DNA of 64,000 nucleotides, taken from positions 2,720,001 through 2,784,000 of the forward strand of contig CBDCTK010000002.1 in assembly GCA_965222225.1 (NCBI GenBank). The letters are read 5' to 3'. A model generated the notes under the pieces. It had not been told where the DNA came from. It ran no database searches and worked only from the letters and a program-made list of their open reading frames with translations. The position numbers and the translations under genes were made by a program. Shown here in pieces: positions 40,402 through 47,800 of this stretch (positions are counted from its first letter, which is position 1; every line of letters begins with the position of its first letter). The DNA is from Candidatus Poribacteria bacterium. Lineage in GTDB: Bacteria; Poribacteria; WGA-4E; JAJDTR01.

Positions 40402-42150
40402 ATGCACGAATCCAAACAAAACAAACGAAAACCCGATTCCTCAATCTCTCGTCGGCGTTTCCTGATGATGACGGGGACTAGCGTTATTGCCCTCGTTGTC
40501 CCGCCGGCGAGCGATGGAGAACGAATGGGGACAACCATTATGCCCACCGAACCCGAAACTCGCATCCCCGACACGTTGGATTTGGTAGAACGCGCCGACT
40601 TCGTGATTAACGCCATCACGCGATGCACCAACCCGGAAGCGGAACACGCCGTTTACTTCTACACAAACCTTAATCGCAATCCACCAGTGATGGTCCGCCA
40701 AATCCCGCTGTACGGAAAGTTCATCGAAGGCCTCTCTCTAGCGCGGCTGATGACCGGCAGCACTTTCAATGAACATGTGGATTGCATCTGGCAGGAGGCG
40801 CTGTTACGGAAATTAGACGAAGAGAAACCCGTGCTCTTGGGACCCGAGGGTGGTAGACAGACGGCGTGGCTGGGAATTCAGTATGCAATCTCCAAAAATT
40901 CCAAGTGGAAAGAGCTGGGCGAGAGCGCTATTCGACGCGCACTCGACGCCGCGGTACATAAAGACGACTACTGCTACTTCCCCCACGACCCGGCAACCAT
41001 GCCGACCGGGTGGGCGGCAACCCTTCAGGGATGGACACTCCAAGGTGTGACGCAATTTTACAACGCCACAGGTTCCGAATTTGCCCTGGAGCTCGCAGGA
41101 AAACTCGCGCGTTACCTGAAAGATTACGCCCAAGTCTTCGACGCCGAAGGCAAGTTTCTCTCGCGTCACGACGTATCGATTCCGCTGAGTCCCGAGTCTC
41201 CCCTAGGGCCGGCGCTCCATTTTCATCACAACGGCAACGCTATGGACGCCCTGGCGGAGTATGCCTTGGCAACCGGCGACGCCGAATTCACCGAGTTCGT
41301 AAAGAAGAGTTATCGCTACGCCCGCTCGCTCAAGGATTCCTCTCCGCTCGTCGGCTTTTTCCCCGAATACATCGAGGACTGGCCCGATGAGCGTGGAGTC
41401 GTTGATAGCGAGGGCTGTTGTGTCGTTGATATGCTACTGACCGCGCTCTGGTTGACCAAGGCGGGTGTGGGCGATTATTGGGATGATATTGACCGCTACC
41501 TAAGAAACCAATTCGCGGAGATGCAGATGACCTCCGGTGACTGGATAACGCACATGGCAGAGAAACGACCGCCTCAACCCATTGGAGAGGACGAAGTTGC
41601 GGTCGGAGCCCCGGACCGATGTGTAGGCAGTTTCGCGGGATGGTCGTCCGCCAACGATTTCTACGTCGGTGCGGGAAACGGAATCATGCACTGTTGTACC
41701 GGCAACGGCGCGCGCGCGCTGTATTACCTCTGGGATAACATGATTGATTTCAGAAAGGGCGAGCTTCACCTGCACCTGCTCGTCAATCGTGTCTCACCTT
41801 GGGCGGAAGTCGCAAGTTATATTCCGCATCAGGGGCGTGTTGACTTCAAATTAAAACAGGAGTGTACCCGCGTCATCCTGCGTGTCCCCGAATGGATTGA
41901 AACTCGGAATTCGGCGATATCCTGCAAACTCAACGGCGCTCCGCACAATTTAGGTTGGGACGGACGTTATGTCGCTGTGGAAGGCGCATCGCCGGGCGAT
42001 ACAATCCAACTGAACTTTCCCATCCCCGAGCGAACAGTTGAGGAAACAATCGGTGAGGTAGACTACACGCTCAGGTTGAGAGGCAATAACGTGGTTTCAA
42101 TCTCGCCACCGGGAAAAAATTACCCCTTCTATCAGGCAGGTAGCGAATGA
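40402..42150 (+). CDS. Tat-exported GH127/GH146-like (alpha/alpha)6 glycoside hydrolase
   Basis: SRRRFL twin-arginine motif; EGCC and HCCTGN motifs; LRVPEW. Confidence 0.7.
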   Translation: MHESKQNKRKPDSSISRRRFLMMTGTSVIALVVPPASDGERMGTTIMPTEPETRIPDTLDLVERADFVINAITRCTNPEAEHAVYFYTNLNRNPPVMVRQIPLYGKFIEGLSLARLMTGSTFNEHVDCIWQEALLRKLDEEKPVLLGPEGGRQTAWLGIQYAISKNSKWKELGESAIRRALDAAVHKDDYCYFPHDPATMPTGWAATLQGWTLQGVTQFYNATGSEFALELAGKLARYLKDYAQVFDAEGKFLSRHDVSIPLSPESPLGPALHFHHNGNAMDALAEYALATGDAEFTEFVKKSYRYARSLKDSSPLVGFFPEYIEDWPDERGVVDSEGCCVVDMLLTALWLTKAGVGDYWDDIDRYLRNQFAEMQMTSGDWITHMAEKRPPQPIGEDEVAVGAPDRCVGSFAGWSSANDFYVGAGNGIMHCCTGNGARALYYLWDNMIDFRKGELHLHLLVNRVSPWAEVASYIPHQGRVDFKLKQECTRVILRVPEWIETRNSAISCKLNGAPHNLGWDGRYVAVEGASPGDTIQLNFPIPERTVEETIGEVDYTLRLRGNNVVSISPPGKNYPFYQAGSE

Positions 42151-43568
42151 TTACGAACGATACCACTGGGGGAGAGCGTTTTATCTATCGCTGTCTGCTG
42201 AAGATCTTATGTTGCTTCTTAACGGTTGGATTCCCCATGGCACCCGACCCAAAAGCCGATGACAAAACTGATATGATTCAACTTGTGGATTCCGATCTCA
42301 ACGACAAAGGTCACAATTCTCCCTTTCAGAGACCAATGGAGGTTAAGGTGTCTAGCGAATTGGCGGACAATCGCATCGGAGGCGACTACGGGAGCGATCA
42401 TCCGGGCTCCGAAGAGGGAATCTATCGACTGGGGCTAAAATGGTTGCGGATCGGATTTTGGGACAGCTCTCTTAATTGGCAGGAGGTGGAGTCCCGTCCG
42501 GGCGAATATAGCATTCCACCCGAACGAGATGCTTTCGTCCGCGACATGGTGGAAAATGGCGTCACTCTTGTGCTTTGCCTTAGTGTCGGATCAGGCAAAA
42601 ACCGACTGGATAGCACAAAATTCAAATCGGACGATGATATTAACCGCTACGCCAATTACGTGCGCTTCATGGTGCGGCATTTCAAGTCGTTCATCAGATA
42701 CTATGAAATCTGGAATGAGCCGGATACCGATACGCCTTGGGGAGGCATCGCCGTTGAAGACTTTGCCCGACTCATCAAGCACGTCATCCCTGTTATCCGA
42801 GAGGAGTATCCCGAAGCCAAAATCGTTGCAGGCGCCACCGGCGGTTATTGGGTATCCGGATTCCCCGGATACGGGAAGTTTTCACGTTACACCCTGGATC
42901 TTGATTACCTGAAAACGCTTCTAAAATCCGGGATAGCGCCGCTGATAGATGTGATTTCGTGGCACCCCTTCTACGGTCATACTCCCGACGATCCGTACTA
43001 CCAAAATTATCCGCAAATGGTGGAAGAACTCAAAGCGTTGGGGGCAGCCGAAGGCTTTAACGGAAAATACTTGGTAGAGGAGATGCTATGGAGAACCGAA
43101 CGGGCGGATGAACCTCAACAGTCAGTATCAGCGATTGTCTCGGCAAAATACCTTGCCAGAGCCATCCTGACACATCTCGGGTTGGACGTTACTGCCAGCG
43201 TCTCCGGCATGTTTCCCGGTGAATGTCCCCACTTCGTGCGGCGATTATGCACCGTTATGGCTGGCGCCGCGCCAATCAGCCTTCCTCTCGAGATCGAGAG
43301 CGCCGCCGCCAATATAAGGCACTACGGATTCTCTCTACCTAACGGCGATAGACTCCTCGCGCTTTGGACCAACGGCGTCGCCGTTGACGAAGATCTCGGC
43401 GTGCAAGCTGACCTACTGCTTCGGGGGCTTTCAGCTCAAAACGTGGTAGGCGTGGACATCCGAAATGGGGTGGAACATGAGATCCTGACAAGCGCGCAAA
43501 ACGGGAATCTAACGATTCGGGGCCTTCTCGTTAAAGATTATCCCATCATCCTTCGCCTGCTTCAATAA
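42147..43568 (+). CDS. Clan GH-A TIM-barrel glycoside hydrolase (GH39/GH5-like)
   Basis: YYEIWNEP, SWHPFY; ATGA overlap with the upstream gene. Confidence 0.75.
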   Translation: MITNDTTGGERFIYRCLLKILCCFLTVGFPMAPDPKADDKTDMIQLVDSDLNDKGHNSPFQRPMEVKVSSELADNRIGGDYGSDHPGSEEGIYRLGLKWLRIGFWDSSLNWQEVESRPGEYSIPPERDAFVRDMVENGVTLVLCLSVGSGKNRLDSTKFKSDDDINRYANYVRFMVRHFKSFIRYYEIWNEPDTDTPWGGIAVEDFARLIKHVIPVIREEYPEAKIVAGATGGYWVSGFPGYGKFSRYTLDLDYLKTLLKSGIAPLIDVISWHPFYGHTPDDPYYQNYPQMVEELKALGAAEGFNGKYLVEEMLWRTERADEPQQSVSAIVSAKYLARAILTHLGLDVTASVSGMFPGECPHFVRRLCTVMAGAAPISLPLEIESAAANIRHYGFSLPNGDRLLALWTNGVAVDEDLGVQADLLLRGLSAQNVVGVDIRNGVEHEILTSAQNGNLTIRGLLVKDYPIILRLLQ

Positions 43569-43737
43569 TGTCAATCTCCTAGCAAAACAGCGAAACCGAG
43601 TTTTTCTTCACAACTCGGTTTCTCAACTCCCCGGTAAATGGAAGCCACTCAATCCAGACCGTCCGCGTTTCCGATCTTACGGAATCGACAACCAGCCACT
43701 GCGTGCCCTCATACAGTTCAGTCCCTCTACGCTAGTC

Positions 43738-44820
43738 CTAAGCTTCGTGGGACGTTACCGCTAACGAACGGCTCAAATAATCGCGATAGTCTTGTGCCTT
43801 GGTGTGACTATGCACACCAAGAAAATCATTCAGCGGTAGGCTCCCTAGCAGTTTCAACTCGTTGGATATCACTTGGCAATCTACCGGCGATTCCTTCTTC
43901 CAACCCCCGATGATCGCCCGCTCCAACGGCGAAACGCCATCAAGTCCTTTGGCATCCCTTTGTCGTTTGAGGTCGAGATTAAGCACATAGAGATTGACAA
44001 AATTGGCGTTCAAATAATCAATCGTCGCCTTATCGCCGAGGACAACTGCCCTCAAGATTTTTCCGCTTCCTCAGCACGACTCGCCCATGAAGGTACCATC
44101 CGCCGAAACAACATGGATAGGACGATCAAGCGCTTTTGCCATCTCTGCTGCCTCTTCCAGCGTTACCCATTCAATGGATTGCGCAGGATAAAACTGCCTC
44201 GCTAATCCAAGTCGTGCCTCTTCCATGGGGATTTCTTCGGAGTAAGCCAACGCTTGAGTGACTTCTTCGCCGACAGTCATCTCAATTCGGCAAACACCGC
44301 ATTCGGTGACGGTGAGTTCGTCATCCCGTTTCCTGTGGGCATCAAAGTTAAGCGTGCTCGGTGGAACGGACATCTCAAAATATATCAATTCCTCCAAGCG
44401 CCGGTCAATAATCAGGGTTCCAGCAAGTTGAGAGGGTGTAAACTTCCCATCCTTGAACGTGAACACCGTGTGGATGCGGAACACTATCTCAGCGTAGTTG
44501 TCGTTGAATCCGCGAAGGGATGCCCACTGGCCTATGTCCTCATGATTCCACAGTTCAAGTTGCGGCTCTTCGGCGAGTTGCTTCAATAGCTGAAGTGCGG
44601 ATTCGGGGTCGATTTTCCAGTGTTCGCCGACAGAGACCGCCTTCCGCGGGAGAAAGCCTTGAAATGTCGAGGCGGGATAGTTTCTTTGTGCTTCAACCTC
44701 TCTCAGCGTCGCAAGCGGCTCCCAGTCCACATGAAAGCCGGCTGTAGTAAACGTAATTGGGGGAATAGATGCGTTAACGGAAATCGGCTCAGGTCCATTT
44801 AGCTCAAGCTAAATTTTCAT
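43738..44820 (-). pseudogene. Selenoprotein N-like gene, copy 1 (UGA 44071-44073); TAG at codon 4
   Basis: GESC-TGA-GSGKILRAVVL in frame with ORF 43738-44055; ATG AAA ATT TAG at 44820; could restart at GTG 44730. Confidence 0.7.
44038..44053 (-). promoter_or_regulatory. SECIS-like hairpin, copy 1
   Basis: GAGGGC-AGUU-GUCCUC, 17 nt after the UGA. Confidence 0.7.
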
Positions 44821-44854
44821 TGTTTTTTCCTAAGAATCATTCTTTTTGCTTCCC

Positions 44855-45085
44855 GCGCAAGTCCTAACATAACTGGCATCCTCTTTTCCGTCTAGCGGAA
44901 CAGGAGTGCCGATATAATAATCAAAAGTCTCTCACTTGTACACAATTTCGGATGCACTTTACAACTTTCTCACATCGGATGCTGCCAGGCGAACACAGAC
45001 TCTTTTGCATTCGGTCTAGCTCGCCAAATTCACGAATCGCCAATCAATTGACGACACACCTCCCGTTACTTCGTGCAAGTCCTAC
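44855..45085. repeat. Intergenic spacer duplicated at 46196-46426
   Basis: About 110 bp identical, the rest similar; partial third match near 47720. Confidence 0.9.
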
Positions 45086-46160
45086 ACTTCTGGAGGCGTT
45101 TCCGCTAACGAATGCTTCAAGAATTTACGATATCCCTGAGCCTCGTTGTTAACGTTCTCGTCAAGAAAATCATTGAGCGGTATGCTCCCTAGCAGTTTCA
45201 ACTCGCTAGAAATCACTTGGCAATCTACGGGTGAATCCTTGTTCCAACCGCCGATGATGACGCGTTCCAAGGGCGAAACGCCATCAAGTCCTTTTATGTC
45301 CCGGTGCTGTTTGAGGTCAAGATTGAGAACCCAGAGGTTAACAAAGTTGGCGTTTAAATACCCAATCGTGTCTTTATCGCCGAGGACAACTGCCCTCAAG
45401 AATTTGCCGCTCCCTCAGCACGACTCGTCCATGAAGGTGCCGTCCGCCGAAACAACATGGATGGGGCGGTCAAGCGTTTTTGCCATCTCTGCTGCGTCTT
45501 CCAGCCTTACCCATTGAATGGATTGCGCGGGGTAAAACTGCCTCCCAAGCCCAAGGCGTGCCTCTTCCATCGAGATTTCTTCGGAATAGGTTAATCCTTG
45601 GGTGACTTTTTCGCCGGCAATCATGTCGATGCGACAAACACCGCAATCTGTGATACCGCGATACTCATCGTAGTTCTTAATAACATCAAAGTTCAACGTA
45701 CCGGGAGGAACGGACATCTCAAAATAAGCTAATTCCTCCTGGCGCCGGTCATTGTTAACCGACCGGAAAACTGTGAGGGTGTAAACCTTCCATCGTCGAA
45801 CACTAACACCGTATGGATACGGAACACAATCTCCGCGTAATCGCCATTGAAGGCGCGAAGCGATGCCCACTGTCCTCCTTCATCATTCTGTAATTCCAGT
45901 TGTGGCTTTTCGGCGAGTTGCGTCAGTAGCTGGAGTGCGGCTTCCGGGTCAATTTTCCAGTGTTCGCCTACAGAAACCACCTCTCGCGGGAGAAAGCCTC
46001 GAAATGTTGAGACCGTATAGTTTCTTTGCGGTTCAACCTCTCTCAGCGTCGCAAGTGTCTCCCAGTCCACATGAAAGCCAGCTGTAGTAAACTCAATTGG
46101 CGGAATGGATGCGTTGACTAAAATCGGTTCCGCACCGTTTATCTCAAGCGGTATCTTCAT
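45082..46160 (-). CDS. Selenoprotein N-like protein, copy 2 (UGA 45415-45417), one -1 indel near 45751
   Basis: DESC-TGA-GSGKFLRAVVL in frame; ACA AT GAC lacks one base relative to the IIDRR of the paralogs. Confidence 0.75.
45382..45397 (-). promoter_or_regulatory. SECIS-like hairpin, copy 2
   Basis: GAGGGC-AGUU-GUCCUC, 17 nt after the UGA. Confidence 0.7.
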
Positions 46161-46422
46161 CGTTTATTCCTAAAGAATTATTCCATTTGCTACTTGCGCA
46201 AGTCCTAACATAACTGGCATCCTCTTTTCCGTCTAGCGGAACAGGAGTGCCGATATAATAATCAAAAGTCTCTCACTTGTACACAATTTCGGATGCACTT
46301 TACGATCTTCTCACATCGGATTCTGCCAAGTGAACGCGAACCTTTTTGCTTTCCGTCGAAATAGCCGAATTCACGAATCGCCAATCAATTGACGGCACAT
46401 CTCCCGTTACTTTGTGCAAGTC

Positions 46423-47505
46423 CTACGATTTTGGGGACGTTTCCGCTAACGAATGCTTCAAGAATTTACGATATCCCTGAGCCTCGTTGTTAACGTTCTC
46501 GTCAATAAAATCATGGAGTGGTAGGCTCCGGAGCAGTTTCAACTTGCTAGAGATTACCTCACAATCAACAGGTGAATCCTTATTCCAACCCCCAATGATG
46601 GCGCGTTCCAAGGGCGAAACGCCATCAAGTCCTTTTATGTCCCGGTGCTGTTTGAGGTCAAGATTGAGAACCCAGAGGTTAACAAAGTTGGCGTTCAAAT
46701 ACTCAATTGTCTTCTTGTCGGCGAGGGCACCTGCCCTCAAGATTTTTCCACTTCCTCAGCACGACTCATCCATGAAGGTGCCATCCGCCGAAACAACATG
46801 GATGGGACGGTCAAGCAACTTAGCCCTCTCTGGTGCTTCTTCCAGCTTTACCCATTCAATGGATTGGGCAGGATAAAACTGCCTCGCTAATCCAAGTCGT
46901 GCCTCTTCCATGGAGATTTCTTCGGAGTAAGCCAACGCTTGAGTGACTTCTTTGCCGGCAATCATCTCAATTCTACAAACACCACTCTCCGCGGCCCAGA
47001 AACCTTCATCGAATTTCCTACCAGCATCAAAATTCAGCGTACTCGGCGGAACAGACATCTCGAAGTAAGCTAATTTCTCCAAGCGGCGGTCGATAATGAG
47101 ACTTCCGGCAAATTGTGATGGCGTAAAAAACCCATCCTTCCACGCAAACACGGCGTGGAAGCGAAACACAATCTCCGCATAATCGTCATTGTAGGCGCGA
47201 AGTGATGCCCATTTGCCTTCGTCATCACCAATCCGCGGCTCTAGTCTCGGATTTTCAGCGAACTGCTTTAGTAACTCAAGCACAGTCTCAGGATCAATTT
47301 CCCAATGTTCACCCACAGCAACTGCCTTCAGCGGCAGGAAACCACGTAGGGTTGAGATGGGGTAGCTTTTCTGCGATTCTACCTCTCGCATCGTTGCAAG
47401 CGACTCCCAGTCCACATGATAACCGGCTGTAGTAAACTCGATCGGGGCAATGGATGCGTTGACTAAAATCGGATCCGGTCCATTTAATTCGAGGTGAATT
47501 TTCAT
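46423..47505 (-). CDS. Selenoprotein N (SELENON)-like selenoprotein, copy 3, intact, 360 aa with Sec at UGA 46756-46758
   Basis: ORFs 46756-47568 and 46423-46740 are in one frame joined by TGC TGA GGA AGT GGA; FRFHAVF, TPSQF, EEA...YP and SCUGSG..LR match the SelN pattern on both sides of the UGA. Confidence 0.85.
46723..46738 (-). promoter_or_regulatory. SECIS-like hairpin, copy 3
   Basis: GAGGGC-AGGU-GCCCUC, 17 nt after the UGA, G in the apical loop. Confidence 0.72.
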
Positions 47506-47644
47506 CGTTTTCCCCAGTAACTTGCCTGACCATTCAAAGCGCAGGGAATAACGATCAAGCAAGCGCACACCGAGTGCGATAGAAATCCCTCGTTAATCCC
47601 TATATACGAATTAGACCTTGCTTTTTTGTTCCTTTCTATGAATC

Positions 47645-47684
47645 AGGCAAGTAGGGGACGCAGATCTGCGTCCCCTACTTGCTT
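47645..47684. repeat. GTAG-type REP palindrome
   Basis: GCAAGTAGGGGACGCAGATCTGCGTCCCCTACTTGC; other GTAG REP-like units at ~13421, 27198, 29767, 40125. Confidence 0.7.
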
Positions 47685-47800
47685 GCTGAAGTGCGTAGGT
47701 CCTACAGTGTTTCCAAATATACACAATTTCGGATGCACTTTACGGTTTTCTTAAATCGTCAATGATAATCGGTTTCACTCCGTCCCAAACTCAAAATTCT

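Follow-up and report, generated by a model that had tools for sequence, protein, structure and literature searches.

SELENON is a human disease gene, linked to myopathy, and its product, selenoprotein N (SelN), has redox substrates that are debated and a chemistry that is poorly understood. According to the available portions of two accounts, SelN is a type II membrane protein with an EF-hand and an S-C-U-G motif whose selenocysteine (Sec, U) lies at position 458/462 (PMC12839072, PMC8148124). Adjacent Cys-Sec pairs able to form a selenenylsulfide also occur in mammalian thioredoxin reductase (GCUG), a parallel drawn by SelN reviews (PMC12839072, in the part available), while Sec beside Cys together with a bacterial selenocysteine insertion sequence (SECIS) is found in the prokaryotic CU-motif families SaoC, SaoL, HgcA, KCU-star and MbdU (PMC13188914, in the part available). 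That 2026 review tabulates 119 prokaryotic selenoprotein families, with a domain model for each, and gives SelD, GPX, deiodinase-like, SelW-like and MsrA as the families common to prokaryotes and eukaryotes; in its available text there is no SelN-like entry among the 119 (PMC13188914). Nor did searches of the main text of open-access papers find a bacterial SelN. Here we analyse positions 2,720,001-2,784,000 of contig CBDCTK010000002.1 in assembly GCA_965222225.1 of a Candidatus Poribacteria bacterium (C2:2720001-2784000 of genome G000; this whole stretch of 64,000 nucleotides is called the window), in which three paralogous genes on the minus strand, at 43738-47505, appear to belong to a large unannotated bacterial family sharing the catalytic core of eukaryotic SelN.

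Under the account that we favour, this core would pair a beta-rich N-terminal domain, whose fold is unknown, with a subsequent thioredoxin-fold domain that has its active-site Cys-Sec pair (E-S-C-U-G-S-G-K) where the first helix begins. The in-frame UGA would be decoded as Sec by the SelA/SelB/tRNA-Sec/SelD system of the genome, directed by a short hairpin within the coding sequence, 17 nt downstream and with a G/U-containing loop, acting as a bacterial-type SECIS. Judging from fold and motif, the protein is most likely a thiol/selenol oxidoreductase cycling via a C249-U250 selenenylsulfide, and the array would have arisen by tandem duplication of a unit of ~1.34 kb. We consider it highly probable that this is the best explanation as a whole, given the conserved UGA, the Cys homologs, the Sec machinery, the coding constraint after the UGA, the fold and the homology to a protein of SelN architecture; SECIS function, redox chemistry, substrate and localisation are what we infer.

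The three paralogous units, each ~1.34 kb long, are 89% identical per alignment column. Under translation table 11 every copy splits into an upstream open reading frame (ORF) ending in ...ESC and a downstream ORF of 105 aa (Table 1), and with TGA read as U copies 1 and 3 each form a single frame with one recoded codon apiece. In all three the TGA is preceded by TGC and followed by GGR. A first-pass annotation of this DNA had described three minus-strand paralogs split at TGC-TGA-GGR with the frame running on for about 110 codons, which ORF and codon reading bear out, and the strings that it quoted (TFMDESC*GSGKILR, FRFHAVF, TPSQF, EEARLGLARQFYP, YLNANFVNLW, SPVD and YRKFLK) are all present in the translations. 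Its proposal of ~360-aa bacterial selenoproteins holds for copy 3, which encodes 360 aa beginning MKIHLELNG... with U250 in the motif ESCUGSGK, but it had missed that copies 1 and 2 are broken.

The UGA column was followed at the DNA level in the loci of related genomes, where 52 pattern hits, after five spurious ones were dropped, left 47 family sequences from 35 loci. TGA occupies the column in 47/47, with neither TAA nor TAG in any, and none of the 47 has a stop within 96 codons after it; the pattern is therefore not chance. Among 21 same-genus sequences the median ratio of non-synonymous to synonymous substitution rates (dN/dS) is 0.196 downstream of the UGA (209 pairs) compared with 0.247 upstream (210 pairs), and the post-UGA frame is under purifying selection. 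At the protein level, 248 fetched homologs extend as far as the column, and 237 of them stop precisely at the preceding Cys. Six of the other 11 (five non-redundant clusters) have Cys at the column itself, namely P0122, P0125, P0127 and P0128 (DESCCGSGK), P0138 (CCATGK) and P0145 (also CC); P0216 (CCFGT) and an ORF of a Poribacteria genome (L056, ESCCGTGK) are additional Cys forms. These Cys homologs are single chains that run straight across the UGA column, so that the family has homologs on both sides of it. Such alternation of Sec and Cys in a single column is the classical hallmark of genuine selenoproteins.

A search of the genome for the Sec machinery, as the first-pass annotation had proposed, found selA, selB, selC and selD, all four above curated cut-offs. 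The genes for SelA, SelB and tRNA-Sec lie side by side at C2:1590469-1593758, the tRNA scoring 76.1 bits against a cut-off of 47 and having the anticodon TCA by ARAGORN, and selD (C2:2933348-2934274; L010) is itself a selenoprotein gene of the Sec type with its own in-frame TGA. SelA occurs in 171 of the 176 genomes of the phylum, and for this reason its co-occurrence with the family does not discriminate. The selD gene has a hairpin of its own 9 nt after the TGA (stem from the 13th base, counting the U of UGA as the first), which reads CUGGAUCC-GGG-GGAUCUGG, with a GGG loop.

Taken together, the sel machinery, the ends of the homologs, the Cys forms, the purifying selection and the hairpin described below make Sec the best reading of the UGA, with actual insertion a step that we infer from sequence. 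Public gene calls treat the TGA as a true stop, ending a 249-aa protein that is followed by a separate protein of ~105 aa from a TTG six codons later; most database homologs are 249 aa long and separate ~105-aa C-terminal pieces are on record. We hold this to be extremely improbable, since the residues encoded by codons +1 to +5, the stretch from the TGA to the TTG, are 94-100% conserved, the Cys homologs cross the site unbroken, the Sec machinery is present in the genome, and the predicted thioredoxin fold straddles the UGA, a mid-domain position incompatible with two separate genes. Near-cognate decoding or local reassignment could also place a standard amino acid there (Trp, Cys, Gly or Arg), and a few relatives do have Trp (P0120, SCWGT, and its cluster mate) or Thr (P0091) at the column. 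TGA nevertheless terminates 16 of the 36 long frames in the window and is not reassigned, the residue that alternates with Sec is Cys, as in known selenoproteins, and the complete sel system is accompanied by a SECIS-like hairpin with frozen synonymous sites; decoding as a standard amino acid is thus very improbable.

The hairpin has a six-base stem, GAGGGC, a loop A-G-(G/U)-U and a 3' arm G-Y-C-C-U-C. Across 45 distinct sequences standard pairs fill 97.8% of the cells, as against 49-72% with the 3' partner shifted by 1-3 columns, and loop positions G28 and U30 are invariant. Codons +7 to +11 are near-fixed (AGG 45/47, GCA 44/46, GGT 30/30, GTC 28/29 and CTC 45/46), whereas equally conserved residues elsewhere (L+20, R+36, R+38, G-8, A-26 and V+29) use 4-6 codons, the commonest at 29-46%. 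Codon usage is stronger evidence for the hairpin than covariation, and we regard this element as a candidate bacterial SECIS, likely but not proven. At 45382-45429 (48 nt, from -12 to +35 relative to the UGA and reaching the 3' end of the hairpin of copy 2), contigs of paralogs or relatives in four runs fit only over that segment and diverge on both sides of it, with a depth there several-fold higher in run X3.

Sequence searches of Pfam, NCBIfam and the PDB with the window protein (P0001) and profile A1 gave nothing useful, and P0001 matched no NCBIfam family at E up to 1. An AlphaFold2 model built from a 10-sequence alignment (predicted local distance difference test, pLDDT, 88.2; predicted template modelling score, pTM, 0.83) sets C249-U250 in a loop that joins strand 235-240 to helix 251-258. 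In thioredoxin-fold enzymes the redox motif is found at the loop between a strand and the first helix, and in the model the pair would occupy this active-site position, at the N-terminus of helix 1. The domain that precedes the thioredoxin fold is beta-rich in the model and has no clear PDB match. As the first-pass annotation had proposed, the membrane-spanning and EF-hand N-terminus is lacking: no hydrophobic segment was found in the N-terminus of copy 3 or in its upstream in-frame extension, and Pfam gave no EF-hand in the window protein. With neither a signal peptide, a transmembrane segment nor an EF-hand in this genus, the protein is therefore probably cytoplasmic.

This arrangement separates the family from other proteins with similar chemistry or fold. 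Thioredoxin-fold proteins of the DsbH/Thioredoxin_7 and AGR/ERp18 types (2ju5, 7tkv, 3ph9 and 1sen) are 12-20% identical with no profile hit, have CxxC or CxxS in place of adjacent Cys-Sec, and lack the extra 200-residue N-terminal domain of the window family. In mammalian thioredoxin reductase the motif sits on the flexible C-terminal tail of a flavoenzyme, whereas here it would lie inside the thioredoxin fold of a family with no flavin or NADPH domain. The CU-motif families named above differ in that each has an NCBIfam model, and none is described as SelN-like in the available part of their source (PMC13188914).

For the comparison with SelN itself the stand-in was P0247, a 387-aa sequence from short contigs taken from among the homologs, which begins with a hydrophobic or transmembrane segment close to the N-terminus and continues with an EF-hand (EF-hand_5, scoring 31.9 bits where the cut-off is 25.9) and then the shared domain, ending ...LLWGALDDQSC. 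It is related to P0001 at E 1.9e-14 by phmmer, in a search against 1.8 billion representatives, and at 7e-22 in a pairwise BLASTP alignment that shows 30% identity across residues 49-249; the likeness to SelN that the first-pass annotation had proposed now has behind it an alignment to a protein of SelN architecture. The nearest Atlas clusters of P0247 are chordate (a 431-aa cluster with a score of 0.97 and a 568-aa one, named 'selenoprotein N', with 0.85), and, independently, the top Atlas cluster of the bacterial Cys form P0122 is 'Selenoprotein N' (Eukaryota 98%), at 0.93 and 207/256 features. Beyond the UGA, similarity persists among the bacterial homologs, including the Cys forms (LNAxFVNTWVLN and SPVD). 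Other searches were less informative: a profile search at near lengths returned mostly Poribacteria, with no named eukaryotic SelN among the matches listed, a homolog search among proteins of 973-2775 aa gave no match, and cluster look-ups for 20 homologs gave no informative names.

These alignments support homology between the family and the SelN core, as far as sequence can tell. Convergence of an unrelated thioredoxin-fold Cys-Sec protein on a SelN-like form would be in keeping with a link that hangs on one unnamed sequence plus Atlas feature scores, and with the finding that no Pfam, NCBIfam or PDB entry connects the family with SelN. It is, however, quite improbable, as the alignment with P0247 runs over ~200 residues and takes in the greater part of the N-terminal beta domain as well as the beginning of the thioredoxin domain, not the redox motif alone, P0247 ends at the same Cys before the stop, and the two independent Atlas queries both reach chordate SelN clusters. 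Recent gene transfer between Poribacteria and an animal (sponge) lineage, in either direction, instead of descent of SelN from an old and broad bacterial family, is rather unlikely. We built a tree of the pre-Sec region from 109 sequences, thinned to about 72% pairwise identity or less, in which the window protein falls in a well-supported clade with other Poribacteria-type sequences. The free tree groups P0247, at the end of a long branch (2.03), with sequences that have the DDQSC motif and at a distance from the window clade; when it was joined to the 16-row clade of the window protein, the approximately unbiased (AU) test did not reject the constraint (p-AU 0.506) and the log-likelihood of the constrained tree was 0.49 higher, both results coming from a single, long-branched sequence of eukaryote type. 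Because the AU test does not reject the joining, we do not take the free tree to deny a specific relationship between eukaryotic SelN and the Poribacteria clade. Transfer is also favoured by the highest identity of P0247 (36%), which is to a member of the window clade, P0121, and by the presence of SelN in sponges according to the available part of its source (PMC3473315). On the other side, besides the free tree, P0001 is 30% identical to P0247 but 35-38% identical to Cys forms that are not of Poribacteria type, the bacterial diversity and architectures are much wider, and the genes have a candidate in-frame hairpin of bacterial type.

We give a little less than an even chance to the following scenario of descent: the animal SelN core is an offshoot of an old and very diverse bacterial selenoprotein family that was missed since automated gene prediction truncates its members at the UGA; in Poribacteria the family was amplified, so that a genome may contain a dozen Sec copies or more; elsewhere it forms the outward-facing module, which would be a redox sensor and effector, of membrane-anchored extracytoplasmic function (ECF) sigma factors; and its soluble Cys forms could be used as a model for SelN.

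Several observations weigh against our account of the locus. P0247 is unnamed, and its identity as SelN comes from its architecture and its Atlas neighbours, which are leads without E-values; it also stops at the Sec codon, so that the eukaryotic comparison covers the pre-Sec part, with the C-terminal third outside it. Two genomes of the same order, G076 (95% complete) and G113 (81%), have family matches with TGA and no SelA hit, which could be an assembly gap or real loss. Covariation in the hairpin is thin, with one pair changed on both sides in two cells, and as much pairing as observed arises in 18 of 500 shuffles. The sole Cys-form DNA, L056, keeps a perfect stem (GAGGAC/GTCCTC), only the loop being altered, to AUUU; part of the stem may therefore reflect the L-R-x-x-V-L codons, although this control has n=1, a Cys-form profile search of the genome contigs having given L056 alone. 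Rfam returned no match over 43600-47700 and has no matching model. In this strain copies 1 and 2 are both disrupted, and the run whose contigs confirm both lesions, X1, may be the source sample. Finally, contigs from RNA libraries cover parts of the locus, but contigs are no proof of transcription.

The family is large. A word-indexed search returned 117 homologs, whose alignments almost all span 69% of the query, exactly residues 1-249, and an exhaustive one yielded 302 clusters at E <= 0.001, 170 of them with E <= 1e-10. Most of the 302 look bacterial and simply unannotated, contrary to the description of the family in the first-pass annotation as known mainly from eukaryotes; the named matches are hypothetical proteins of Candidatus Poribacteria. 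Its suggestion that the family is expanded agrees with the presence of matches in 131 of the 176 genomes of the phylum (103 of the 133 high-quality ones), with 8-12 in many of them. Each of the matches listed contains exactly one TGA (span ~2-355), and there are 675 further matches besides. Genomes of the same genus have arrays of 2-4 tandem copies, such as the four at G020:C41:67829-72347, and the genome of the window has two distant paralogs (37% identity), with one in-frame TGA each (DDESCUANAK/ANGK).

Architectures vary among the relatives. Many have N-termini resembling signal peptides or lipoproteins (P0070, P0096 and P0128), of which the window copies have none. The SelN-like domain is found C-terminal to an ECF sigma factor (Sigma70_r2/r4) and a membrane segment in L056:2020-4119 (+), P0125 and P0248, with both Cys and Sec-truncated forms of this fusion in existence, and behind leucine-rich repeats (LRR) in P0212. 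The ECF sigma fusions suggest a sensing role for the domain in some lineages.

Set beside eukaryotic SELENON/SEPN1, the bacterial proteins have in common a beta-rich domain followed by a thioredoxin-like domain and S-C-U-G at the same column, the eukaryotic Sec being numbered as above in the available text of PMC12839072. They differ in having no N-terminal transmembrane segment or EF-hand, in their length (~360 aa in comparison with ~560-590 aa), in a candidate in-frame hairpin just after the UGA in place of a SECIS in the 3' untranslated region, in their tandem arrays, which can bring a genome to a dozen copies or more, and in the ECF sigma factor or LRR fusions of some relatives. With this two-domain core in common, the bacterial family makes it possible to ask directly about the origin of SelN. 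The copy of the PDB that was searched holds no sequence relative of the family. These small, soluble, anchor-free proteins and their natural Cys forms would be useful for structural work and enzymology. Inventories of the prokaryotic selenoproteome need correction, as a SelN-like family is missing from them and hundreds of public gene calls end at residue 249, for example a Candidatus Poribacteria hypothetical protein; if confirmed, selenium use in these sponge-associated bacteria would be much heavier than annotated.

Table 1. Features of the array and related loci. Coordinates are those of the window unless a genome and contig are given.
Feature	Coordinates	Strand	Remarks
Copy 3, predicted intact SelN-like selenoprotein gene	46423..47505	-	360 codons + TAG stop; Sec at codon 250; 100% match over 1-360, 1 TGA
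Copy 2, broken paralog	45082..46160	-	UGA 45417-45415; hairpin 45397-45382
Copy 1, paralog with TAG at codon 4 (44811-44809), rest open	43738..44820	-	UGA 44073-44071; hairpin 44053-44038
In-frame UGA (predicted Sec codon) of copy 3	46756..46758	-	Context TGC-TGA-GGA
Candidate bacterial SECIS hairpin of copy 3	46723..46738	-	GAGGGC-AGGT-GCCCTC; stem begins 17 nt past UGA
Spacer between copies 3 and 2	46161..46422	-	Same repeated segments; AGGA-type ribosome-binding site ahead of next ATG; direct reading
Spacer between copies 2 and 1	44821..45081	-	Repeats spacer 46161-46422; direct reading
Split ORFs of copy 1 (table 11)	44071..44730 + 43738..44055	-	
Split ORFs of copy 2 (table 11)	45415..45870 + 45082..45399	-	
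Split ORFs of copy 3 (table 11)	46756..47568 + 46423..46740	-	
Distant paralog, 522-aa reading	G000:C2:5461994-5462947 (L025:1069-2637)	-	DDESCUANAK; ~150-aa C-terminal extension common to P0091 and P0120
Distant paralog	G000:C2:3545968-3546762 (L026)		One TGA

The repetition of one spacer in the other defines the tandem-duplication unit given above. Only copy 3 is intact in this strain, and copies 1 and 2 are recently broken. In copy 2 a single nucleotide is missing between 45751 and 45750, which puts the N-terminal 143-aa ORF of this copy in another frame, and there is also a 3-nt in-frame deletion; a contig of run X1 spans 45523-46225 with no gap or difference, which confirms the deletion region. 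In copy 1 the codon at 44811-44809 is CAG (Gln) in contigs of run X3, which comes from another study, and of the RNA-library run X17, so that the nonsense change is specific to this strain and the pseudogene state polymorphic among populations.

The neighbours of the array in the window, a PhyH dioxygenase, a PfkB kinase and an unassigned 473-aa ORF, give no functional hint; the last of these, at 42147-43568 (+), lies immediately downstream of the array and matched nothing in Pfam at E <= 0.001. Contigs of the RNA-library runs X17 and X19 lie over 19/30 and 21/30 bins of the locus, respectively, and among the contigs listed none bridges a UGA with 31 letters on each side. Over the ~90 nt that follow the hairpin region (45260-45350 and 46600-46690; alignment columns 801-900), copies 2 and 3 are near-identical and copy 1 differs, and this near-identity suggests gene conversion within the array.

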